Source of the DNA: an uncultured Prevotellaceae bacterium
GTDB taxonomy: Bacteria > Bacteroidota > Bacteroidia > Bacteroidales > Bacteroidaceae
DNA: 45,952 nucleotides
Assembly: GCA_900321835.1 (NCBI GenBank)
Contig: ONXQ01000005.1
Span: forward strand, 1 to 45,952
Direction of reading: 5' to 3'
The position numbers were made by a program, and so were the translations under genes. Within the stretch, counting starts at the first letter, position 1. Each line of letters begins with the position of its first letter. Under the pieces are notes generated by a model. It was given only the letters and a program-made list of their open reading frames with translations, was not told the origin of the DNA and ran no database searches. Shown here in pieces: positions 1 through 45,952 of this stretch.

Positions 1-100
1 GACAGGAATCATGAAAATTGCTGCATAACGAAAGATCTATCGGAATGCCTCAATGCAAAAAAGAAAAAAAGAGGATGTGCCTATTTTGACACACCCTCCA

Positions 101-148
101 GACGATTTTTTCCGAGCGCTCAGAAGTTTTCGTCCAAGCGCTTGCACG
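101..148. repeat. partial (2-unit) copy of the 22-bp-phased GAGCGCTC intergenic repeat family
   Basis: gacgattttttccGAGCGCTCagaagttttcgtccAAGCGCTTgcacg; cores at 114 and 136, exactly 22 bp apart. Confidence 0.8.
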
Positions 149-3398: not shown

Positions 3399-3503
3399 GA
3401 GCGCTTGGACGAAAACGTCTGAGCGCTCAAACGTTTTCGTCTGAGCGCTCGGAAGATTTTTTCTGAGCGCTCAGACCTTTACGCGCGAGCGGGCGCACGT
3501 GGG
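3399..3503 (+). repeat. 22-bp-phased GAGCGCTC element, 4 units plus tail
   Basis: Cores start at 3399, 3421, 3443, 3465 (exact 22-bp period); tail cagacctttacgcgcgagcgggcgcacgtggg; lies between convergent genes. Confidence 0.92.
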
Positions 3504-3609
3504 AACGGACTGCACAATGCAACGCCGCCCTGCAACGACGAGACGTTGCAGGGCGGTGTTGTGCTGTTGTCCGTTCCGCACAAATCGGAGGACGGAGACG
3601 GGAAGGGGG

Positions 3610-7178: not shown

Positions 7179-7338
7179 CAAAGTTACGGATAAGTGAGAG
7201 CAATACAAAATGAAAATCAAAAAATTTTCATTTTTATTGCCGAACGGGAGTAATTTCGGCGTAGCCAAAGTTACGGATAAGTGAGAGCAATACAAAAAGA
7301 AAATCAAAAAAAATTCATTTTTATTGCCGAACGGGAGT
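7179..7338 (-). repeat. tandem duplication (87-bp period) of a promoter-box plus AT-rich hairpin module
   Basis: Copy 1 is 7179-7251 and copy 2 is 7266-7338: caaagttacggataagtgagaGCAATACAAAAnGAAAAT...ATTTTTATTGCcgaacgggagt. On the minus strand each copy reads hairpin, then 13 nt, then TAACTTTG. Confidence 0.85.
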
Positions 7339-7366
7339 CTGCAGTCACCATTTCGATGCCACTTGC

Positions 7367-7466
7367 GAGCGCTTGGAAAAAAACGTCTGAGCGCTCAGAC
7401 GAAAACGTCCGAGCGCTCGGACGAAAATTTCTGAGCGCTCAGACCTTTACGCGCACACGCGTGGGA
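7367..7466 (+). repeat. 22-bp-phased GAGCGCTC element, 4 units plus tail
   Basis: Cores at 7367, 7389, 7411, 7433; head gccacttgcGAGCGCTTGGaaaaaaacgtc; tail cagacctttacgcgcacacgcgtggg; sits between divergently transcribed genes. Confidence 0.92.
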
Positions 7467-7579
7467 AGAAAAAAACGGTGCCGCACATTTTTCGTACTTA
7501 ACCGTACCTGTGGCTGCGTTGAAGGTACTCCCGTACGGAAAAAACCACAATAAATTTGCTTTTTTCGCTCACTTAATCG

Positions 7580-14001: not shown

Positions 14002-14105
14002 GAGCGCTCGAACGCGGACTTCCGAGCGCTTGGAAATTTTCGTCCGAGCGCTCAGACGTTTCTTTCTGAGCGCTCAGACCTTTACGCGCGCACGCGAGCG
14101 ACGGG
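14002..14105 (+). repeat. 22-bp-phased GAGCGCTC element, 4 units plus tail
   Basis: Cores at 14002, 14024, 14046, 14068; begins 5 nt after the antiporter stop; tail cagacctttacgcgcgcacgcgagcg. Confidence 0.92.
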
Positions 14106-18045: not shown

Positions 18046-18055
18046 ATATAGGCCT

Positions 18056-18140
18056 GAGCGCTCGGACGAAAACGTCTGAGCGCTCAGAGATTTTCTTCCG
18101 AGCGCTCAGACGTTTTTTTCCAAGCGCACGGACTTCAAAA
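18056..18140 (-). repeat. 22-bp-phased GAGCGCTC element, reverse orientation, 4 units
   Basis: Cores at 18056, 18078, 18100, 18122 (the last is degenerate, AAGCGCAC). The head unit ...tttttttccAAGCGC is the reverse complement of GAGCGCTTGGaaaaaaa. Confidence 0.9.
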
Positions 18141-20385: not shown

Positions 20386-20414
20386 GCCGCCAGTTCGGCA
20401 TTTACCCCAAAAAC

Positions 20415-20458
20415 ACACCGCAGTGCAACGGAATTTGCACTGCGGTGTATTTTTATTT
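20415..20458 (+). terminator. rho-independent terminator
   Basis: 14-bp perfect stem ACACCGCAGTGCAA-cggaat-TTGCACTGCGGTGT followed by atttttattt. Confidence 0.85.
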
Positions 20459-20461
20459 CGT

Positions 20462-20548
20462 CTGTGGACGAAATTTATTTCAACTGCGGACGAAATTATT
20501 TTCGTCTGCGGACGAAATTTTTTTCAACTGCGGACGAAATTTGGGGGC
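20462..20548. repeat. 4-unit tandem array, 22-bp period, CTGCGGACGAAAT variant
   Basis: Units start at 20462, 20484, 20506, 20528: ctg(t/c)ggacgaaatt(t/a)(a/t)tttc(aa/gt). Confidence 0.9.
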
Positions 20549-23638: not shown

Positions 23639-23697
23639 CAAAGTTAGTGTAAAAGGTGTGCAATACAAAATAAATTAACATATTTTATTTTTATTGC
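23639..23697 (-). promoter_or_regulatory. -7 box TAACTTTG preceded by a GCAATA...TATTGC AT-rich hairpin (third copy of the 7179-7338 module)
   Basis: Minus strand reads GCAATAAAAATAAAATAtgttaATTTATTTTGTATTGCacaccttttacacTAACTTTG. Confidence 0.6.
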
Positions 23698-23764
23698 TGC
23701 CCTACGTCCCTGCATGGCGCAGAAGACGGACGGAGGGCGACGGCTGTACCGCTGGGGTGAAAAT

Positions 23765-23870
23765 CTTCGCGCGCACGCGTAAAGGTCTGAGCGCTCGGAA
23801 AGAAACGTCTGAGCGCTCGGAAGAAATCGTCTGAGCGCTCAGACGAAAATTTCCAAGCGCTCGGAAAGGC
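23765..23870 (-). repeat. 22-bp-phased GAGCGCTC element, reverse orientation, 4 units plus tail
   Basis: Cores at 23789, 23811, 23833, 23855. The reverse complement is nearly identical to the 14024-14105 copy apart from one extra unit. Confidence 0.92.
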
Positions 23871-26679: not shown

Positions 26680-26950
26680 CGAACAAAAAAGGCAACAGCG
26701 GTTGACCTGACACGCGAACAATATTCATACCCTTAAGCCGGGATAAAGGATCGATCGGGATACTCATCAAATTACAATCGAAAACCGAGAACGCTTTGCA
26801 TATCAATGGCGGGCCACGCCCTCCCTCGGGAAGGTAACCTTGAGTCGGTGGATTACAAAGATATGCGAGCACTCAAATCTTATCTGCTCGGAGTTTCATC
26901 ACATCTCCTCCCGGCTTTTCCCATAAAGGAGGCAGCACCGCTGCCTCCTT
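26680..26950 (+). ncRNA. candidate structured non-coding transcript upstream of tRNA-Ser (class not recognised)
   Basis: TATCTTTG -7 box at 26667-26674; no credible ORF; 9-bp long-range pairing AAGCCGGGA (26735-26743) with TCCCGGCTT (26909-26917); perfect 10-bp terminal hairpin AAGGAGGCAG-caccg-CTGCCTCCTT (26926-26950). Confidence 0.3.
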
Positions 26951-26986: not shown

Positions 26987-27073
26987 GGAAAGTTGCCGGA
27001 GTGGTCGATCGGGCCGCACTCGAAATGCGGTGACCGGGTAACTGGTCCGGGGGTTCGAATCCCTCACTTTCCG
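26987..27073 (+). tRNA. tRNA-Ser (anticodon CGA), long variable arm
   Basis: Acceptor GGAAAGT/ACTTTCC, D-arm GCCGGAGTGGTCGATCGGGC, anticodon stem-loop CCGCA-CTCGAAA-TGCGG, variable arm TGACCGGGTAACTGGTCCGG, T-arm GGGGTTCGAATCCC. Confidence 0.9.
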
Positions 27074-27121
27074 CAAGGAGAAGGGAGAGATGTCTGAAAG
27101 ACACTCCCTCTCTTTCCGCTG

Positions 27122-27212: not shown

Positions 27213-28447
27213 ATGAAGAAAATCATTGTGGCTGGGCTGGGGCCTGGCAGCCGCGAAGACATGACGGAGGCGGTGGCGAAGGCGCTGGCCGAAGCCGATG
27301 TGGTGGTCGGCTACAAGTTCTATTTCCAGTTTGTCGAACCGTGGCTGAAGCCGGGAGCCGAGTGTGTCGATACGGGAATGAAACGCGAAAGAGACCGTGC
27401 CGAACAGGCTTTCCAACTGGCTGAAGAGGGCCGCACAAGCAGAAGCGCGGCTCGGACGTCGAGGTGGTGGTGTTGCCCGGCATTTCGGCTTTCCAGAAGG
27501 CGGCATCGCTGCTCGGCGCTCCGATTGGTCACGACCTCTGCCTCATTTCGCTGAGCGACCTGATGACGCCGTGGGAAGTCATCGAACGCCGCATCCGTGC
27601 TGCCGCCGGCGGCGATTTCGTCACAGCGGTCTATAATCCGCGCAGCCACGGACGCTACTGGCAACTCAGCCGCCTTCGGGAGGTTTTCCTGCAGGAGGGC
27701 CGCAGCGAGAACACCCCTGTGGGACTGGTCAGGCAGGCTGGACGTGAGGACCAGACGGTGCAGGTGACCACACTCGGCAGCCTCCGTGTCGAAGAAGTTG
27801 ATATGTTCACCGTCCTCATCATCGGCAATTCGCAGTCGTATGTGGAGGACGGACGGATGATCACGCCACGCGGCTACTTTGCCAACGAGACCGAAGACCA
27901 AGACTGCGTCAAGCCTGGTCAGCAAATCATGATGGAGTCGTTCCGCACCATCCGCAGCGAACTGCGTCGCCACGACTACCCCACCGACCATCTGTGGGCA
28001 CTGCTCCATGCCATCCACACGACTGCGGACTTTGAGATGGAGAACATCCTCTACACCGACCCTGATATCGAGGTGAAATGCTACCTGAGCGACCCGCGTG
28101 TGGCCGACATGGCTGTGCAGCAGGGCATCACCCGCACACAGGCCGGCATCCGTCTCGCTGTCGCCGAGCATCCCGATGCGCTCTACGTCTTCGGCAATGC
28201 TCCTACGGCGCTGATGGAACTGTGCGACCTCATGCGCAAGGGTGCGGCCCATCCAGCCGGCATCGTCGCCGCTCCCGTCGGCTTTGTCCACGTGAAAGAA
28301 TCGAAATACATGGTAAAAACCTTTACGGACGTGCCCAAAATCATCGTCGAAGGGCGCAAGGGCGGCAGCAATGTCGCTGCTACACTCTGCAACGCCATTC
28401 TCTGCTTCGACGACGCCGAGGCGCTGCGTCCCGGCCGCGACTTATGA
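27213..28447 (+). pseudogene. cbiH-cbiC: cbiH(cobJ)-cbiC(cobH) fusion: precorrin-3B C17-methyltransferase / precorrin-8X methylmutase, disrupted
   Basis: CbiH N-terminus MKKIIVAGLGPGSREDMT...AFQLAEEGR is in the frame of 27213. The continuation (K)QKRGSDVEVVVLPGISAFQKAASLLGAPIGHDLCLISLSDLMTPW is in the frame of 27464. The conserved SSGD(A/P)G(I/V)YGMA block expected between them is absent (junction about 27434-27437). CbiC motifs HTTADF, GNAPTAL, PVGFV, GRKGGSNVAA are present. Confidence 0.7.
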
Positions 28448-29502: not shown

Positions 29503-29566
29503 CCCACCCCACGCACCTGCTGAAGCCACCACTCGGGTCCGCCATCAGGACTTGCTTTCGACTTTT

Positions 29567-29631
29567 AAGTGCTTAAAAAAAAGTTTTAAGTGCATAAAAA
29601 TACATTTTCAAGTGCTTAGAAATTCATTTCA
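29567..29631. repeat. 3-unit tandem array, 21/22-bp period, AAGTGCTT variant
   Basis: Units at 29567, 29588, 29610: AAGTGCTTaaaaaaaagtttt / AAGTGCATaaaaatacattttc / AAGTGCTTagaaattcatttc. Confidence 0.85.
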
Positions 29632-29647
29632 ACCAAGACATAGAGAC

Positions 29648-31374
29648 ATGAAGACAGCAGTGATACAAGTGACAGAAGCCGGCGCACAGGTGGCGCAGGT
29701 GGTCTGTCAGGAAACAGGCGGAATGCTCGTTCCCCGCTCCGACCTCGGCCGGCACTGGGCCGACGTGGAGGCCGTCGTGTTCATCGGCGCAATGGGCATC
29801 TGTGTCCGCACCATTGCGCCCTTGCTGACGGACAAGCACACCGACCCCGCCGTCGTGTGCATCAGCAGCGACGGCAGCCATGTGATTTCCGTCGTTTCGG
29901 GGCACGTCGGCGGTGCCAACCAACTGGCCGGACAACTGGCCGCTGCCCTGCCCGGGGCCGAGGCCGTGGTCACGACCCAGAGTGACACACAAGGACTCTG
30001 GGCCCTCGACACGCTGGCACAGCGCTATGGCTGGACTGCCGAGGTGGAGGGTGCGACGATGAATGACGCCATCTTCCGCTTTGTCGGCAAAGAGCCTGTG
30101 GCACTGCTGATTGAGACGTGCGATGCAGGCAGCGACTATCTGCAGCGCACCTGTCCGCCACACGTTCGCCGCATCCAGTCGGAGAGCGAAGTGGATACAG
30201 CCAGCGACCGTCTGCTCATTGCCGTCACTCCGCGCCAGATTCACAGCAGCGTTCCCGTGCTCCAGTACGTTCCGAAGACGCTCTGCCTGGGCATCGGGCT
30301 GGCCCATCAGGCAGAACCTGCCGAGGCGATTCTCCGTCAAATCATGCAGTGTGTCGCCGACAGCGGATGGCTGTGGCAGGGTGTGCGCACCGTTGCGACC
30401 ATCGACGTGAAACGCGACGAACCCGTCGTGAAACTGCTGCAAAGTCAAGGCTTCGACGTTCAGTTCTACACGGCAGACCAACTCGCCGCTGTGCCTGTGC
30501 CCACGCCCAGCGATGTCGTCGCCAGCCATGTGGGGACACCGAGTGTGAGTGAGGCCGCAGCCATTCTTGCAGCCGACGGAGGCCCGCTGGTCGTCAGCAA
30601 GAAAAAAGGTGAAAAATTCACCGTTGCCGTGGCCTCTTTGCCGCTGATGCAGGAGGTGGGCAGTGGGCATGGCTTCATCGAAATTGTCGGAGCCGGCCCC
30701 GGCGATCCCGACCTCATCTCCGTGCGCGGCCGTCGAATGCTCGAACGTGCCGACCTCATCCTCTACGCAGGTAGTCTGGTACCACGCGAACTCACGCTGT
30801 GCGCCAAACCAGAGGCCGTGGTGCGTTCCTCCGCCTCGATGTCGCTGGAGGAACAGTGTGCGCTGATGAAGGAATATTACGACCGAGGCTGCTTCATCGT
30901 CCGTCTGCACACGGGCGACCCCTGCATCTTCGGTGCCATCCAGGAGCAGATGGCCTACTTCGACGCCCACCACATGCACTACCACATCACACCATACCCG
31001 AACGCTGTCAGACCATCATCCTGACGCGCGGCGAAGGCCGTACGCCCATGCCCGAACGCGAAAAACTCCATCTGCTGGCCCGCAGCCGCTCGACCATGTG
31101 CATCTTCCTCAGTGCTGCCATCGTCGATGACGTGCAGCAGCAACTCCTCGCCGAATACCCGCCTGAGACGCCTGTCGCCGCCTGCTACCATCTGACGTGG
31201 CCCGACCAGCGCATCTATCGGGGTCAACTCAAAGACCTGGCCAGCATCGTCCACGACCATCATCTCACACTGACCACCATGCTCGTGGTCGGCGATGCGA
31301 TTGACAACCGCCAGGGCCTCTCCGAACTCTATTCGGCACACTTTTCACACTTGTTCAGAAAAGCCAGCGAATGA
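29648..31374 (+). pseudogene. cbiGF: cbiG-cbiF fusion: cobalt-precorrin-5A hydrolase / precorrin-4 C11-methyltransferase, disrupted in the cbiF part
   Basis: CbiG part looks intact (ATG 29648, MKTAVIQVTEAG...). CbiF starts with IEIVGAGPGDPDLISVRG...RLHTGDPCIFGAIQEQ...MHYHITP, then stops. The continuation IPERCQTIILTRGEGRTPMPEREKL...TMLVVGD is in the frame of 30799. The PGVSSF...AAAA segment expected between them is absent (junction about 30992-30997). Confidence 0.7.
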
Positions 31375-33242
31375 TACTCCTCTTTGGTGGCACGACCGAA
31401 GGACGCAAGGCTGCAGAGGTGCTCGAAGAGGCCGGCAGCACGTTCTACTACTCGACCAAGACGGGCGAGCAGGACATCGCCCTGCACCACGGGCTGCGCA
31501 TCGACGGAGCGATGGATGCCGAGGCGATGCAACGTTTTTGTCAGGAACAGGAAATCCGCCTCATCATCGACGCCGCCCATCCCTTTGCGCAGCAGTTGCA
31601 CCAGACCATTGCCGACGTCGCCCAGCGCCTACGCCTTCCCGTCGTCCGCTACGAACGCATCTTTCCGCCGCGCGACGAACACTTCATCTGGATTGACCGC
31701 TACGAAGATTTGCGCACGCTGCGGCCTGCCACCGTTCTTGCCACAACCGGCGTACAGAGCATTTCGCACCTGAAACCCCTCGAGACCGCAGGCTTCCGCT
31801 TCCTGTACCGCATTTTGCCCCGCGAGAGTTCTGTGGCACTGGCAAAAGCGCAGGGTGCTGCCGACGACCAACTTTGCTACTATCACGACGACGAGGACGA
31901 AGTCGCCCTGCTCCGCAGGCTCCGTCCCGACATCCTCCTGGTGAAGGAAAGCGGTGAAAGCGGTGGTTTCAACAAAAAAACGCAAGCCGCTCGTTCACTG
32001 GGTATTACGGTTGTCGCGCTGAAACGCCCTGCAACGCCTTTCACCTTCCACTGCGTCAACGGTCCGCACGGACTTCGCCGCCGTGTCGAGCAGTTGCTAC
32101 CCGACTTTTTTTCCCTGCACAGCGGCCTGACCACAGGCACGTGTGCCACCGCAGCCGCCGTAGCAGCAACGATTCGTCTGACGCGGGGTGAAACACCCTC
32201 CCAGGTGCCTGTCATCCTGCCCGACGGCGAAACCATCTCCGTCGGCGTCGGCTATGGCAACGACTATGCTTTCTGCATCAAGGACGGCGGCGACGACCCC
32301 GACGTGACCGACGGGATTGAAATAAGGGCAAAGGTGGAGGCACAAGCCCCCCTCCACCTCCCCCCCGAAGGGGGAGGGCCTCAAAAACAGCCTGTAGATA
32401 AGGAATCCTCCCCACTCGGGGGGGAGTTAGAGGGGGGCCAGGTCTTTATCACTGGTGGCGAAGGCATCGGAACCATCACCCTCCCCGGCTTTGACTATCC
32501 CCCTGGTTCGCCAGCCATCAACCGTGTACCCCGGGAGATGATAATGACTAACTTAAAGGCACTCCCCTTATGTGGGAGAGATGGAGGGGGGCCGTTCACC
32601 ATCACCCTCTCCGTCCCCAACGGTGCAGAGATAGCCCGCCGCACGTTCAATCCGCGCCTGGGCATCGAGGGCGGCATCAGCATCATTGGGGTGAGCGGCA
32701 TTACGAAACCCTTCAGCGAAGAGGCCTTCGTCGCCTCCATCCGCAAATGTATGGAAGTGGCAAAGGCCAGTATGCCCGCCGAAGGCTGTCTGGTCATCAA
32801 CAGCGGCGCGAAGAGCGAGGCCTACGTCAAGGCGCGTTTTCCCGAACTGCCTGCACCCTGTTTCGTGCAGTATGGCAACTACATCGGTGCCACACTCCGC
32901 ATCGCGGCCGAACTCGCCATTCCCCGTGTCACGCTTTGCGTGATGCTGGGCAAGGCCGTCAAACTCGCTGCCGGCAACCTCGACACCCACAGCCGCCGCA
33001 CGACAATGGACGTCGGCTTTGTCCTCTCCATGCTCACCGAGGCAGGGTGCAGCGACGACGTCATCGCCGCAGCCCACGGTCTCACGCTGGCCCGCGACCT
33101 CTGGACCCTCCTGCCGCCCGACCGTCTCGAACCTTTTGCCCGCGTCGTCATCCGCCATTGTCACCACCATTGCGACCCGGTTTTGCCCGACGGCCAACTC
33201 GACATCCTGCTCATCGACGAGGAAGGACATATATACGCCTGA
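31371..33242 (+). CDS. cbiJD: cbiJ-cbiD fusion: cobalt-precorrin-6A reductase / cobalt-precorrin-5B C1-methyltransferase
   Basis: CbiJ: MILLFGGTTEGR, IIDAAHPFA, LVKESGESGG. CbiD: SGLTTGTCATAAAVAA, KDGGDDPDVT, PAINRVPREMI, FNPRLGIEGGISIIGVSGI. ATGA overlap with the preceding ORF. The frame is open but contains the inserted repeats listed below. Confidence 0.8.
   Translation: MILLFGGTTEGRKAAEVLEEAGSTFYYSTKTGEQDIALHHGLRIDGAMDAEAMQRFCQEQEIRLIIDAAHPFAQQLHQTIADVAQRLRLPVVRYERIFPPRDEHFIWIDRYEDLRTLRPATVLATTGVQSISHLKPLETAGFRFLYRILPRESSVALAKAQGAADDQLCYYHDDEDEVALLRRLRPDILLVKESGESGGFNKKTQAARSLGITVVALKRPATPFTFHCVNGPHGLRRRVEQLLPDFFSLHSGLTTGTCATAAAVAATIRLTRGETPSQVPVILPDGETISVGVGYGNDYAFCIKDGGDDPDVTDGIEIRAKVEAQAPLHLPPEGGGPQKQPVDKESSPLGGELEGGQVFITGGEGIGTITLPGFDYPPGSPAINRVPREMIMTNLKALPLCGRDGGGPFTITLSVPNGAEIARRTFNPRLGIEGGISIIGVSGITKPFSEEAFVASIRKCMEVAKASMPAEGCLVINSGAKSEAYVKARFPELPAPCFVQYGNYIGATLRIAAELAIPRVTLCVMLGKAVKLAAGNLDTHSRRTTMDVGFVLSMLTEAGCSDDVIAAAHGLTLARDLWTLLPPDRLEPFARVVIRHCHHHCDPVLPDGQLDILLIDEEGHIYA
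32347..32439 (+). repeat. in-frame GC-rich hairpin insertion inside cbiD
   Basis: ccCCTCCacCTCCCCCccgaaGGGGGAGGgcc tcaaaaacagcctgtagataaggaat CCTCCCCactcgGGGGGAGttagaggggggcc; encodes APLHLPPEGGGPQKQPVDKESSPLGGELEGG. The AT-rich centre is atypical for this CDS. Confidence 0.6.
32560..32593 (+). repeat. second copy of the CTCCCC...GGGAG...GAGGGGGGCC motif inside cbiD
   Basis: cACTCCCCttatgtGGGAGagatggaggggggcc resembles 32407-32439. It is preceded by rare-codon AT-rich DNA (atgataatgactaacttaaag). Confidence 0.45.
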
Positions 33243-33350
33243 GCGCTCAGAAATTTTCGTCTGAGCGCTCAGACGTTTTCCTCCGAGCGCTCAGACGTTT
33301 TCTTCCGAGCGCTCAGACGTTTTTTTCCAAGCGCTCAGATGTATATAGAA
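33238..33350 (-). repeat. 22-bp-phased GAGCGCTC element, reverse orientation, 5 units
   Basis: Cores at 33241, 33263, 33285, 33307, 33329. The first core overlaps the cbiJD stop codon (ccTGAgcgctc). Head ...tttttttccAAGCGCTCagatgtatatag. Confidence 0.92.
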
Positions 33351-33454: not shown

Positions 33455-33650
33455 AACAACGGTAGTGCCGCGCCGTCACGACGGCGGTGCGAAGCACGCA
33501 AGGGAATGCGGTGTGAATCCGCAGCTGTACCTGCAACTGTAATCCTCTTCTTTTAAGGCTGTCCATCCATGCCACTGACCCTCTGGGACGGGAAGGCGGA
33601 CAGACCGGGGAAAGCCAGGAGACCTGCCGTAAGAAACGAATCTCTTCCAA
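33455..33650 (+). promoter_or_regulatory. cobalamin (B12) riboswitch
   Basis: Conserved core AAGGGAATGCGGTGTGAATCCGCAGCTGTACCTGCAACTGTAA, GCCACTG (33571-33577) and B12 box AGCCAGGAGACCTGCC (33613-33628); about 50 nt upstream of the TBDT start. Confidence 0.9.
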
Positions 33651-36925: not shown

Positions 36926-36944
36926 GCGCCCCGGCGCTACTCGC

Positions 36945-37045
36945 GCGCGTATATATACGTCTGAGCGCTCGGACGAAACGCTCTGAGCGCTCAGACGAAA
37001 ACTTCCGAGCGCTCAGACGTTTTTTTCCAAGCGCTCGGAAACCGA
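36945..37045 (-). repeat. 22-bp-phased GAGCGCTC element, reverse orientation, 4 units
   Basis: Cores at 36963, 36985, 37007, 37029; left end is the palindrome CGTATATATACG (36948-36959); head ...tttttttccAAGCGCTCgg. Confidence 0.92.
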
Positions 37046-39738: not shown

Positions 39739-40755
39739 ATGCTCTACGGACACGGCGACGACACCTTCCGCTTCCCCCACCTGCGTGCCAACTTCAGTTC
39801 GAACATCTGCACAGAGGCCGACCTTGCCCCCCTCAAGGCGCATCTGGCCACACGGCTCTCCGCCATCGAGAACTATCCGGAGCCGGCAGCCGACTCGCTC
39901 GCTGCCTGCATCGCCCGGCTGCACGGCATCCAGCCCGACGAGGTGCTGGTGACCAACGGCGCCACCGATGCCATCTACCTCATTGCACAGGCTTTTGCCA
40001 CGGATGGTACCTATTTCTCGACCGACGAACCCACTTTCAGCGAATATGCCGACGCCTGCCTTTTGTTCGGATTGAAACCTCAGACAGACGCGGACTCTTC
40101 TGCAGCCGTTCGCTGGCTGTGCAACCCGAACAACCCCGACGGCCGCATCTACACGTCCGAGCAAGTGCGACGGGAGGCACAGCGCAGCACGTGGCTCGTC
40201 GTCGATCAGTCGTACGAAGACTACACCGCAGCCCCTCTGCTCACCGCTCGCGAGGCGCTCGGTGTGCCCAACCTGCTGCTGCTCCATTCGCTCACCAAGA
40301 GTTACGCCGTACCGGGGCTGCGCATCGGCTATGTCACTGCGCCGGCTCCGCTCATCGCCCGTCTCAAGTCCGTCAGCCGTCCGTGGGCCGTCAATGCCCT
40401 GGCGGTCGAGGCCGGGAAATGGCTGCTCAGCCACGATGTACGTGCCGTGCCCGACCTCGATGCCCTGTTGGCAGAGACCCAGCGGCTGGCCAACGCACTT
40501 TCGGAGGTGCCTCACCTCCACGTCAGCCCCACCGCCACGACCTTCATGCTCGTCTGCTGCGACACGTTCACGGCGGCCCAACTGAAGGAGCGGCTGGCCT
40601 CGGAACACGGTCTGCTCATCCGCGATGCCTCCAATTTCCCCACGCTCACTCCCCATCACTTCCGTGTGGCAACCCAGCGGCCCGACCAGAACGATGCACT
40701 TGTCGCTGCCCTGCGCACCCTTCTCTCCCCGTCTGCAGACGAACGAAAGTTCTGA
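39739..40755 (+). CDS. cobD: threonine-phosphate decarboxylase (class I/II aminotransferase fold)
   Basis: MLYGHGDD, NFSSN, YPEP, CNPNNPDG, HSLTKSYAVPGLRIGY (PLP lysine motif). Confidence 0.85.
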   Translation: MLYGHGDDTFRFPHLRANFSSNICTEADLAPLKAHLATRLSAIENYPEPAADSLAACIARLHGIQPDEVLVTNGATDAIYLIAQAFATDGTYFSTDEPTFSEYADACLLFGLKPQTDADSSAAVRWLCNPNNPDGRIYTSEQVRREAQRSTWLVVDQSYEDYTAAPLLTAREALGVPNLLLLHSLTKSYAVPGLRIGYVTAPAPLIARLKSVSRPWAVNALAVEAGKWLLSHDVRAVPDLDALLAETQRLANALSEVPHLHVSPTATTFMLVCCDTFTAAQLKERLASEHGLLIRDASNFPTLTPHHFRVATQRPDQNDALVAALRTLLSPSADERKF

Positions 40756-40820
40756 GTGCTTGAAAAAAAAGTTTTAAGTGCTTGAAAATTTACTTTTACG
40801 TGCTTGAAAGTTTGTTTTTA
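40754..40820. repeat. 3-unit tandem array, 22-bp period, (G/A)AGTGCTT variant
   Basis: Units at 40754, 40776, 40798: GAGTGCTTgaaaaaaaagtttt / AAGTGCTTgaaaatttactttt / ACGTGCTTgaaagtttgttttt; the first unit overlaps the cobD stop. Confidence 0.88.
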
Positions 40821-40833
40821 CCTACTTGTTTCG

Positions 40834-43711: not shown

Positions 43712-43772
43712 ACCACACCCGTTTTTCCTGAATCCCATAGTCCCACACAGAGGGAAGTTTTGCCACTTGTCC

Positions 43773-43865
43773 GAGCGCTTGGAAAAAAACGTCCGAGCGC
43801 TCGGACGTTTTCGTCTGAGCGCTCAGAGATTTTTTTCTGAGCGCTCAGCCCTATATACAGACTTT
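43773..43865 (+). repeat. 22-bp-phased GAGCGCTC element, 4 units
   Basis: Cores at 43773, 43795, 43817, 43839. The head gccacttgtccGAGCGCTTGGaaaaaaacgtc matches the 7367 copy. Tail cagccctatatacagac. Lies between convergent cobS and cbiB. Confidence 0.92.
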
Positions 43866-44754: not shown

Positions 44755-45952
44755 GGCGCAGAATCTGGTAAATGCGTTGCAGGTCAACGTGCTGGCGGAC
44801 ATGGTCGGCCAGACGGTCGTATTGCTCCTGCTTGAATGCCTGATAATCAAAGGTGGAGACCTTGTCCGAGCGTTTTGCAGCATAGGGCTGGAGCAGGAAG
44901 TCCACGAAGGCGCGGTTGTCGAAGATGCCGTGCAGGTAGGTTCCCATGCACTGCGGACTGGCGTAGTATCCGTCTTCGCGTCCGTCGCTGAGGCGGAAAA
45001 GTGGAGAGGCAGGCTCATCGCCAAAGGGCTTCGTCACACCCATGTGGATTTCGTAGCCCGTGAGAAGAGCCTCGCCGTCCCCAGGCGAAAAGGCTGGGAA
45101 TGAAGAATGAAGAATGTCGGTTTCTCCTCCGGATGAAGAATAAGATTTACTTTCATTCTTCATTCTTAATTCTTCATTCTTCATGTCGTCGAAGGGAAGC
45201 CAACGGGCAGATACCTGGCGGGTAACTTTCTCGCCAGAAAGCGTAGTAGTGACTGGCAGAAGGCCCAAACCGGGAAGGCGTTCGGCATCGCCTTCGACAT
45301 GAAGCGGGTCGCACACCTCGACACCCAGCATCTGATAACCTCCGCAGATGCCCACCACTGTTTTTCCCTCGCGATGCGCCTCAACAATGGCCTGCGCCAT
45401 GCCGCTGCGGCGCAGATGGTAGAGGTCGTCGAGGGTCGATTTGCTCCCCGGCAGCACGACGATGTCGGCCTGCCGGAGGTCGTCGGGCGCTGCGGTGTAG
45501 AAGAGGTGGATGCGCGGATCCTGTTCCAGGGCATCGAAGTCGGTGAAGTTGGAGATGTGCTGAAGCATGACCACGGCGATGTTGATGCGTCCCTGCGCCG
45601 TCACCCTGGATTTCTGAGCCAAAGAAACACTGTCTTCCTCCTCGATGTGGATGTCTTTGAAATAGGGTATGACGCCCAGCACGGGGATGCCGCAAATCTT
45701 TTCCAACAGGCTGCGCCCCTCGTCGAAAAGGCGCATATCGCCACGGAATTTGTTGATAATGATGCCGCAGATGCGTCGGCGGTCGTCGTCGGGCAGCAGT
45801 GCGATGCTTCCATAAACCGAAGCAAACACGCCGCCACGGTCGATGTCGCCGACCAGAATGACACGTGCGTCGGCATGGCGGGCCATCGGCATATTCACGA
45901 TGTCGCTGTCGCGGAGGTTGAGTTCGCTGATGCTACCTGCTCCCTCCATGAC
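44747..45952 (-). CDS. cobQ: cobyric acid synthase, 5'-truncated by the window edge
   Basis: GAGSISELNLRDSDIVNM, VGDIDRGGVFAS, IINKFRGD, GATase part GICGGYQMLG, GYEIHMG, GTYLHGIFDN. The stop overlaps the cbiB start by 8 nt. Contains the inserted repeat listed below. Confidence 0.88.
   Translation of the reverse strand, partial: VMEGAGSISELNLRDSDIVNMPMARHADARVILVGDIDRGGVFASVYGSIALLPDDDRRRICGIIINKFRGDMRLFDEGRSLLEKICGIPVLGVIPYFKDIHIEEEDSVSLAQKSRVTAQGRINIAVVMLQHISNFTDFDALEQDPRIHLFYTAAPDDLRQADIVVLPGSKSTLDDLYHLRRSGMAQAIVEAHREGKTVVGICGGYQMLGVEVCDPLHVEGDAERLPGLGLLPVTTTLSGEKVTRQVSARWLPFDDMKNEELRMKNESKSYSSSGGETDILHSSFPAFSPGDGEALLTGYEIHMGVTKPFGDEPASPLFRLSDGREDGYYASPQCMGTYLHGIFDNRAFVDFLLQPYAAKRSDKVSTFDYQAFKQEQYDRLADHVRQHVDLQRIYQILRHD
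45098..45184. repeat. in-frame AT-rich heptamer-palindrome insertion inside cobQ
   Basis: GAATGAAGAATGAAGAATG (45098-45116) ... CATTCTTCATTCTTAATTCTTCATTCTTCAT (45154-45184). Translated on the minus strand as ...DDMKNEELRMKNESKSYSSSGGETDILHSSF... Confidence 0.8.

Follow-up and report, generated by a model that had tools for sequence, protein, structure and literature searches.

How has a block of palindromic 22-bp units, at positions 23765-23870 of a contig from an uncultured Prevotellaceae bacterium (GenBank assembly GCA_900321835.1, contig ONXQ01000005.1), come to have relatives in both orientations elsewhere on the same contig? A preliminary description of this DNA had seen in the copies a dispersed, possibly once-mobile element with unit slippage, and not a set of independent local expansions. 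The window analysed here is the complete contig of 45,952 bp, and position counts refer to the whole of it. We consider it probable that the copies belong to a single dispersed family of repeats, modular and non-coding, in a rumen Prevotella-like bacterium, comparable to the repetitive extragenic palindromes (REP) and bacterial interspersed mosaic elements (BIME) or to BOX elements, which would have spread to the 3' ends of genes, would change by slippage and palindrome-templated copying, and would be transcribed as a 3' stem-loop. The family is modular, dispersed and palindromic, with whole-unit slippage, one templated patch, low polymorphism within units, empty orthologous sites, a bias towards gene 3' ends and very stable predicted folds.

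Clustering of AGCGCT sites, together with Tandem Repeats Finder (TRF) at period 22, identifies nine arrays in which AGCGCT is repeated at exactly 22 bp, comprising 36 cores within 46 kb (A1 to A9, Table 1). The heptamer GAGCGCT occurs at 64 sites on both strands compared to 10.3 +/- 4.1 in dinucleotide-preserving shuffles, none of 100 of which reaches 64. All nine copies, which are present in both orientations, have a common head unit, GAGCGCTTGGAAAAAAACGTCT, and one of two related tails. Read head first, an element opens with the head GAGCGCTTGGAAA(A/T)4CGTCY, continues with between one and three internal units of 22 bp and closes with a tail some 25-35 nt long, the latter being either of type 1 (CAGACCTTTACGCG(C/T)GC..., in A2, A3, A4 and A6) or of the TATA type (CAG(R)C(S)TATATA..., in A5, A7, A8 and A9). 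The two tails are akin (CAGACC-TTT-ACGCGCGC versus CAGACG-TATATAT-ACGCGCGC), a relation apparent from the A8 tail, CAGACGTATATATACGCGCGCG. Expressed as Hamming distance per 16-nt spacer, heads differ from each other by 2.9 and tails by 5.3, units within one array by 7.4, and heads from tails by 10.2. Heads and tails are thus closer between loci than units are within an array, and the copies are therefore related end to end, as the preliminary description had held. Much of its detail is also upheld: the reverse complement of 23765-23870 reads exactly as given there; the copy at 14024 has units 1, 3 and 4 of the 23765 copy with one mismatch each but no unit 2, and carries another unit upstream; the flank and head gccacttg(c/tcc)GAGCGCTTGGAAAAAAACGTC is common to the copies at 7367 and 43773; and the orientations are as assigned (forward at 3399, 7367, 14002/14024 and 43773, reverse at 18056, 23765, 33238 and 36945). 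Its eight copies are all genuine, with a ninth, reverse copy at 99-142 having been missed, and of the three end types it listed, the ccAAGCGCT end is the head read in reverse, the other two being the related tail types. Three additional arrays of 22-bp period are built on different cores. Each of the 12 arrays is intergenic, and arrays occur at a density of approximately one per 4-5 kb, occupying roughly 2% of the DNA in the contig.

The typical unit is the 18-nt palindrome CGTCTG-AGCGCT-CAGACG plus an A- or T-run of 4-7 nt. Each AGCGCT forms the centre of a palindrome of 18-20 nt with 7-11 paired positions, and as the 16 nt between cores represent two half-arms flanking the A- or T-run, neighbouring cores can also pair across the linker; a single unit, adjacent units or a whole array can thus form hairpins on either strand. 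Spacers occur in both orientations within one element, exemplified by cGGAAGAAAACGTCTg and its reverse complement. Whole arrays are predicted to fold, as single strands, into one nested hairpin or two long hairpins, with predicted energies between -48.9 and -70.5 kcal/mol and z-scores that range from -2.9 to -12.2 (0 of 200 shuffles being as stable), and several units pass a pattern scan for a terminator hairpin followed by a T-run. The units abut and the spacer motifs are themselves repeated, which is not the organization of a CRISPR array with its unique spacers. At gathering thresholds, no Rfam family was found on the arrays in a scan over the window, which matched only a 6S-like RNA, a cobalamin riboswitch and a tRNA, and below threshold only a spurious viral stem-loop was obtained on an array. 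Restriction-site avoidance was considered and rejected, as AGCGCT occurs 17 times outside the arrays compared to about 14 expected from base composition.

The changes that arrays undergo are seen among strains, represented by nine loci with a MazG in the window's 90%-identity cluster and by contigs from further look-ups (labels such as L200 denote compared contigs or loci). The compared loci are 98.9-99.3% identical to the window over 13.5 kb, and identical proteins are found in rumen metagenome assemblies and metagenome-assembled genomes (MAGs) labelled Bacteroidaceae. Two of the six arrays compared differ in length by exactly one unit: A4 is 22 bp longer in six strains, the extra unit being GAGCGCTCAGACGATTTCTTCC, i.e. 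the very unit missing at 14024 in the window, and at A7 six strains have one unit fewer (-22 or -21 bp). The claim that copies differ by whole 22-bp units therefore holds, and A4 and A7, with head-to-tail units of strain-variable number, represent minisatellites or variable-number tandem repeats. With the extra unit, the A4 of the six strains is approximately 97% identical to A6 over 88 nt, tail included. A7 is the most variable locus among the strains, with one unit fewer, a templated 6-nt patch and, in one further strain, loss of the head. In L200 and L201 its left spacer is changed from CAGAAATTTT to TTGGAAAAAAA (TTGGAAAAAAACGTCTG versus CAGAAATTTTCGTCTG, six changes in ten bases), and the patched left end is the exact reverse complement of the right end, the kind of change left behind when the template is switched across a quasi-palindrome or when another copy acts as donor in conversion. 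Only 1 of 241 bp is variable in the unit parts of A4, A5 and A6, compared to 47 of 1579 at other intergenic and 181 of 11300 at coding positions, the units being therefore constrained or homogenised; the unit part of A6 is invariant among strains and its flanking spacer polymorphic. At two sites, divergent recombinant flanking alleles come with a different array subfamily at the same position, and at the 29563 site the strains with the divergent flanking allele have a TAGCG-type AAGYGCTT array. Six independent assemblies break inside arrays. An assembly artefact was ruled out as the origin of the arrays, since the same arrays are found in independent ENA, NCBI and Logan assemblies.

At a greater distance the sites themselves differ. 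In a sister genome (GCA_024684455.1; MazG 92% and TrpS 94% amino-acid identity, 50-54% G+C, syntenic over approximately 35 kb), four of seven orthologous sites are without such an array (A2, A3, A5 and the array at 20452), and in relatives at 89% and 83-84% identity the site at mazG is empty as well. The sister array at the A4 site is located directly after the stop codon and carries the head TTGGAATTTTT in the same orientation as A4 of the window, the head type being TTGGAAWTTTT in both. The species of the window in turn still has TAGCG-type arrays, and the odd upstream unit of A4 (…CGAACGC…) resembles the TCGAACGC spacer of these sister-type arrays. Taken together, the site comparisons indicate that the window lineage has gained arrays at new sites, that some sites have long been occupied, and that subfamilies are homogenised or replaced genome-wide, as known for REP/BIMEs. 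In the comparison of occupied with empty sites, proposed in the preliminary description, every copy is present in the strains at about 99% identity and four sites are empty in the sister species. The combination it named as contradicting its account, i.e. all copies fixed, no empty sites and no polymorphism in unit number, is not what is found, as unit number varies and empty sister sites exist.

The gene map, based on Pfam scans and refined by gene calls from sister contigs, places the arrays predominantly behind genes. For all but one of the nine AGCGCT copies the array starts 0-61 bp past a stop codon, arrays occupy four of the five convergent spacers, A3 is the only array in a divergent spacer, and most spacers in the contig holding a gene 3' end carry an array. 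Such a distribution may be accounted for as follows. Whole elements would have been copied into many intergenic spacers, nearly always at gene 3' ends, as the shared architecture and the empty orthologous sites suggest. Once resident, the arrays change by replication slippage, one 22-bp unit per step, a step visible in the strain polymorphism in unit number. A switch of template, or gene conversion, either across the palindrome or from copy to copy, alters the arrays as well, as one allele shows; this process keeps the arms complementary and homogenises the copies within the genome. Most copies would be transcribed as 3' untranslated region (UTR) or intercistronic RNA, given that most are situated past a stop codon and ahead of the terminator or gene that comes next, and the transcript would fold into a very stable stem-loop with U-runs. 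By analogy to REP/BIME and BOX elements, this stem-loop may act as an orientation-independent leaky terminator and as a barrier to 3' exonucleases. The role in RNA is the weaker part of the account, as palindrome-templated copying can explain the complementarity of the arms without selection on RNA and there is no preference for the sense strand.

Several observations weigh against this account. Among some ten strains at 99% identity there is no presence/absence polymorphism, every array being kept, so any mobility must be slow or past. A search for target-site duplications, as had been suggested, gave none at the flanks of any copy; likewise, neither a GTAG tag nor consistent terminal inverted repeats were found at the arrays, nor, by Pfam scans, any transposase-like gene in the window. 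Dispersal is therefore inferred and not demonstrated. The proposal of a dispersed, possibly once-mobile element with unit slippage is supported by the common architecture, the strain differences in unit number and the empty sister sites, with insertion polymorphism at about 99% identity and target duplications lacking. The three orthologous sister sites with a variant of their own imply that concerted evolution or repeated use of the same sites is part of the story, and long residence with concerted evolution, or re-use of hot spots, could explain part of the pattern without frequent transposition. Transcription and 3'-end activity of the arrays are likewise deduced from sequence. On the sense strand of the four co-directional copies about 4 G-U are found versus 13 A-C mismatches, and such counts, with no sense-strand preference, give no support for selection on the sense RNA specifically. 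Finally, A2, A5 and the 20452 array adjoin conventional terminator hairpins and hence are not needed for termination there, and A8 cannot be a strong terminator since its flanking genes are probably co-transcribed. The arrays are accordingly best placed in 3' UTRs or between cistrons and not regarded as sole strong terminators.

To view the arrays in a broader context, 1.0 Mb around mazG from 80 Prevotellaceae metagenome contigs was surveyed using TRF. The periods peak sharply at 22-23 bp, with a period of 21-23 in 60 of 110 matches. Of 27 sequence families, 26 are intergenic (nine in convergent, 11 in co-directional and one in divergent spacers), many have hairpin units of unrelated sequence, such as AAAACATCCGGATGTTTT, and several species have unrelated arrays in the mazG 3' spacer. 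Lineage-specific hairpins arrayed at a period of 22-23 bp are thus common among the Prevotellaceae. At 35 other Bacteroidales loci where AGCGCT is spaced at 22 bp, which supplied 112 distinct units, arm positions 4-9 are Watson-Crick paired in 56% compared to 28% (at most 34%) in shuffled sequences, and each arm position shows all four pair types. A 21-bp array of a related species, AAATCTCGACGTGATTTTTRC, is present in 2.9 copies in one contig (L191 5649-5708) and 3.9 in another (L192 5628-5708), indicating whole-unit polymorphism in other families as well. A genome scan for AGCGCT-N16-AGCGCT-N16-AGCGCT yielded, among the matches listed, mostly unrelated perfect 22- or 11-bp tandem repeats from GC-rich phyla, and among these listed matches only those from Bacteroidales are comparable. 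Plasmids gave no match. Nine matches in viral contigs, with GGAGCGCTCC at 22-bp spacing, are apparent GAPKG-type coding repeats as read from the nucleotides and were judged unrelated. In the literature on Prevotella, Bacteroides and Bacteroidales, no description of the pattern was found beyond BrickBuilt and general REP papers.

These data allow a wider, if rather doubtful, interpretation, namely that the AGCGCT arrays are one lineage's version of an undescribed Bacteroidales-wide class of contiguous intergenic hairpin units with a fixed period of 22-23 bp and a lineage-specific palindromic core, either maintained and spread by a dedicated trans-acting machinery or serving as a specific 3'-end RNA signal. 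In the former case a site-specific recombinase or an HUH-type enzyme, for example, would recognise the core in the folded strand; in the latter, the arrays could represent an RNA signal in a phylum without Hfq and ProQ. The fixed period would then reflect the geometry of the machinery and not common descent of a terminator.

It is unlikely that the arrays are phased binding sites at which a dimeric protein, either nucleoid-associated or a site-specific recombinase, recognises the palindromic AGCGCT, with 22 bp placing successive sites on one face of the helix. Such a protein would fit with arms and linkers that change fully across lineages in which the 6-bp core and a period of 22 bp are retained (this species, GAGCGCTC/CAGACG; sister species, AAGYRCTT/TAGCG; elsewhere, AAGTGCTT with AT-rich arms), with A- or T-run linkers that could bend the DNA in phase, and with variation by whole units; in the recombinase version, the palindromic centre would permit both deletion or duplication of units and the inversion of spacers seen inside one element. 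However, binding to a 6-bp core requires no complementarity between the arms, which, involving all four pair types, rather fits a folded strand or palindrome-templated copying. Moreover, the arrays are located at 3' ends and not at promoters, the cores of other Prevotellaceae are wholly different (ATCCGGAT, GAGCCTC) and yet retain a period of 22-23 bp, and no candidate protein was found.

Even less probable is a classical MITE (miniature inverted-repeat transposable element), i.e. a deletion derivative of an insertion sequence (IS) with terminal inverted repeats and target-site duplications, moved in trans by the transposase of that IS; the 22-bp units would then constitute a minisatellite inside the element, comparable to BrickBuilt. 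Such an origin would suit the size and intergenic position of the arrays as well as the empty orthologous sites, and it would suit A7, which has symmetric ends (TATATAC(G/A)(C/T)CTGAGCGCT...AGCGCTCAG(A/G)(T/C)GTATATA, where TATATA could be a TA-type target) and in strain L200 forms a near-perfect palindrome of 100 bp. A7 is, however, alone in its symmetry, the ends being unlike (head versus tail) in eight of nine copies. No flanking direct repeats are seen at any copy, the empty sites of the relatives being too diverged for exact junctions, and both leader or tail segments of hundreds of bases and a transposase-like gene in the window are lacking. The type-1 tail CAGACCTTTACG has AGACCTTT in common with the IS5-type inverted repeat GAGACCTTTGCA of BrickBuilt (PMC4596501), but as CAGAC is an ordinary unit arm this 8-nt match, noticed post hoc, is weak.

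Least probable of all is that each locus duplicated its own terminator hairpin in place and that the likeness stems from common terminator constraints, for although units do resemble bidirectional terminators (A-run, GC-rich hairpin, T-run), arrays sit at gene 3' ends, 22-bp gain and loss does happen, and many unrelated unit sequences have a common period in other Prevotellaceae, this leaves unexplained the common head and related tails, which are not hairpin arms, at nine loci, the near-identity of A6 and the A4 of other strains from end to end, the common 8-nt flank past the head in A3 and A9, the conventional terminators still present beside A2, A5 and the 20452 array, and the empty sister sites, so that the earlier dismissal of local expansions stands.

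Returning to the dispersed family, the immediate surroundings of its copies (Table 1) are as follows. A1 lies upstream of a response-regulator gene, and in another assembly of the same strain (L218 1510-1600) has four cores and the TATA-type tail CAGACGTATAG, directly after the stop of a 500-aa gene. Positions 1-98 of the window differ from two other assemblies of that strain, and this end of the contig is probably a chimera or a collapse of the repeat. A2 starts 47 bp past the stop of a Sel1-repeat gene; after it comes a conventional terminator hairpin, bidirectional and shared with the convergent trpS. A3 separates an 826-aa gene (minus strand) from an SSF symporter gene (plus strand), and A4 begins 5 bp past the stop of a Na/Ca-exchanger gene. 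The tail of A5, whose head core is degenerate (GTGCGCT), abuts the stop of an 868-aa M6 peptidase gene, the conventional bidirectional terminator being located after the head. The head of A6 is 13 bp past the stop of mazG (minus strand), the array being upstream of the promoter of a DUF4468 gene. The A7 tail contains the cbiJ-cbiD stop codon. A8 starts 15-20 bp past the stop of cbiK and takes up most of the spacer ahead of the next TonB-dependent receptor gene, whose called start is about 60 nt beyond the array end, and A9 lies between the convergent cobS and cobD.

Table 1. Arrays of 22-bp units in the window and the state of the orthologous sites in the sister genome.
Array	Positions	Strand	Composition	Orthologous site in sister genome
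A1	99..142	-	reverse; 2 cores left, cut off at contig end	species' own 22-bp array type; core AAGYRCTT, arms TAGCG/TGGCG
A2	3399..3505	+	4 cores; head, 2 units, type-1 tail (CAGACCTTTACGCGC...GTGGGAA)	heptamer microsatellite ATTGACC x 9.4 in place of array (L226 10996-11061)
A3	7358..7467 (array start 7367)	+	4 cores; extended head (gccacttgc), 2 units, type-1 tail	no array
A4	14002..14105	+	4 cores; degenerate upstream unit GAGCGCTCGAACGCGGACTTCC, head, 1 unit, type-1 tail	species' own 22-bp array type; core AAGYRCTT, arms TAGCG/TGGCG
A5	18046..18131 (array start 18056)	-	3 cores + degenerate head; 2 units; TATA-type tail	conserved terminator only
A6	23765..23870	-	4 cores; reverse on plus strand; head, 2 units, type-1 tail	species' own 22-bp array type; core AAGYRCTT, arms TAGCG/TGGCG
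A7	33228..33347 (array start 33238)	-	5 cores; TATATAC at both ends	
A8	36940..37042 (array start 36945)	-	4 cores; reverse; TATA-type tail	
A9	43762..43857 (array start 43773)	+	4 cores; extended head (gccacttgtcc), 2 units, TATA-type tail	
Other core	20452..20542		unit TTTCGTCTGCGGACGAAA + A/T run; adjoins conventional terminator between convergent genes	unrelated element
Other core, AT-rich	29563..29629		TTTTAAGTGCTTAAAA; inside cbi operon	
Other core, AT-rich	40746..40828		AAGTGCTTGAAAA; between 338-aa aminotransferase-like gene and histidine-phosphatase gene	

Further recurring elements were noted in the intergenic regions. The terminator hairpin GCACTGCGGTGTAT... plus 22-bp units with the core CTG(C/T)GGACG is found both at 20400-20542 of the window and, as reverse complement, at approximately 5100-5300 of L227, at a different locus (the SSF-trpS spacer) of a related species, and the 20452 array may thus belong to a second dispersed family. 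The array at 40746 is directly upstream of the promoter-like motif TAACTTTG. This motif also occurs, on the minus strand, in an 87-bp tandem duplication with a promoter-like block (CAAAGTTACGGATAAGTGAG...GCAATACAAAA...TTTTTATTGC) at 7179-7338; similar promoter-like blocks are present upstream of the DUF4468 gene (23640-23700) and, duplicated, in the sister genome (L226 9700-9990 and 19808-19976), and the block may be a second recurring intergenic module. Inverted blocks of 7-8 bp tandem repeats, (GAATGAA)n ... (TTCATTC)n, are located at 45098-45184, and inverted repeat blocks (GAGAAAAT)n ... (TTCTCATT)n at 13892-13975 of L191; such blocks are another route to hairpin-forming spacers in these genomes. 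The window also encodes a Bacteroidales-1 (6S-like) RNA (133 bits, 26739-26922), a tRNA-Ser(CGA) (26987-27074) and a cobalamin riboswitch (33465-33645) ahead of a TonB-dependent receptor gene in a large cobalamin biosynthesis/salvage cluster.

Strains that are 97-99% identical elsewhere have alleles of cbiG and of the 5' part of cobQ/cbiA that are 82-83% identical or unalignable (window 29650-30990 versus L200-L207; L222 14059-14927 versus L223), which suggests recombination with a diverged lineage. L028 (Prevotella sp. RGIG5985, a sheep-omasum MAG) is 99.3% identical to the window over 743 bp from inside A7 and then has no detectable similarity, which could be due to a strain-variable receptor gene or a chimeric contig. 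Compared to the otherwise 100% identical L108, the window is missing 64, 111, 97, 38 and 51 bp at 27436/27437, 28066/28067, 28499/28500, 29086/29087 and 30990/30991, respectively. These segments fall inside the cbi methyltransferase gene, cbiC and cbiG, the frames being broken in the window and the genes intact in L108; the five junctions have no flanking direct repeats, and two other contigs end exactly at 27436. The gaps look like an assembly or processing artefact of the MAG contig and not like biology.

Much work has been devoted to dense families of palindromic repeats in Proteobacteria (REP/BIME, REPIN-RAYT) and in pneumococci (BOX), but in Bacteroidota, a dominant phylum of gut and rumen, they are barely described. 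The present family displays three modes of change in one population, i.e. unit slippage, templated patching and subfamily replacement. If the arrays shape mRNA 3' ends or operon polarity, they are relevant to the annotation and engineering of Prevotella and Bacteroides, and if a dedicated enzyme moves them they would represent a new repeat-enzyme system. In practical terms, strain-level variation in unit number could serve as a typing marker, and the arrays break short-read assemblies and explain contig ends in MAGs.

As regards known systems, the arrays resemble intrinsic bidirectional terminators in having GC-rich hairpins with A- and T-runs after stop codons, several of which pass the pattern scan, but differ in being tandem, in their common non-hairpin head and tail, in often lying beside a separate terminator and, for A8, in a position probably inside an operon. 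The BOX elements of Streptococcus pneumoniae, boxA-(boxB)n-boxC, are present in about a hundred dispersed intergenic copies in both orientations, vary in unit number between loci and strains, and have a stable RNA secondary structure and no coding capacity; the unit is about 45 bp, and boxA and boxC are partly complementary and so form inverted ends. The combination of a head, variable tandem internal units and a tail in a dispersed, non-coding element of either orientation is thus shared with BOX, whereas the 22-bp unit, the head and tail that are not complementary, the phylum and the sequence itself, which has no similarity, are not.

REP/BIMEs of Enterobacteria and of Pseudomonas (REPINs), which are mobilised by REP-associated tyrosine transposases (RAYTs), are likewise short imperfect palindromes in high extragenic copy number, mostly after genes and between convergent or co-directional ones, with species-specific sequence at shared intergenic sites. 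REP/BIME clusters are mosaics with motifs in both orientations; here, the units being palindromic, orientation is visible only in linkers and arm variants, which occur in both orientations within one array. Transcribed REP stem-loops stabilise upstream mRNA and weakly terminate transcription (PMC3733652, PMC2817692), and REPs are recognised by a conserved tetranucleotide, GTAG (or CGTC), which is unpaired and borders the palindrome on one side (PMC3733652). In contrast, no GTAG is found beside the present units, CGTC is paired with GACG inside the stem, and the units abut at a rigid 22-bp period between a defined head and tail, in the phylum Bacteroidota. Since the units begin with CGTC, CGTC-tagged REPs were considered and ruled out, the tag of that family being unpaired and its stems starting with A-T pairs. 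A tblastn search for RAYT/IS200 proteins, using an approximate IS200-type query, gave no match in 2.28 Mb of compared loci, which is only a lead.

BrickBuilt of Porphyromonas gingivalis, a minisatellite-MITE, is an intergenic tandem array of the 23-nt unit AGAYCATARTATCCTCTCRTRTG without spacers, forming long stem-loops, with up to 22.8 units, leaders and tails of up to about 300 nt with IS5-like inverted repeat ends, reported short target duplications and 19 copies per genome (PMC4596501). Its unit has no relation to the present one and is a weak palindrome only; in the window the period is exactly 22 and the flanks measure 10-35 nt, and its 19 copies per genome compare to about one array per 4-5 kb in the window. 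In its behaviour the family is like REP/BIMEs, BOX elements and the minisatellite part of BrickBuilt. Lacking the REP tag, the inverted ends and target duplications of MITEs and the unit and flanks of BrickBuilt, the family is not placed in any named one. BrickBuilt, which belongs to the same order and shares whole-unit gain and loss between strains, flanking leader and tail, assembly gaps and the lack of an Rfam match, is the nearest published case in the order.

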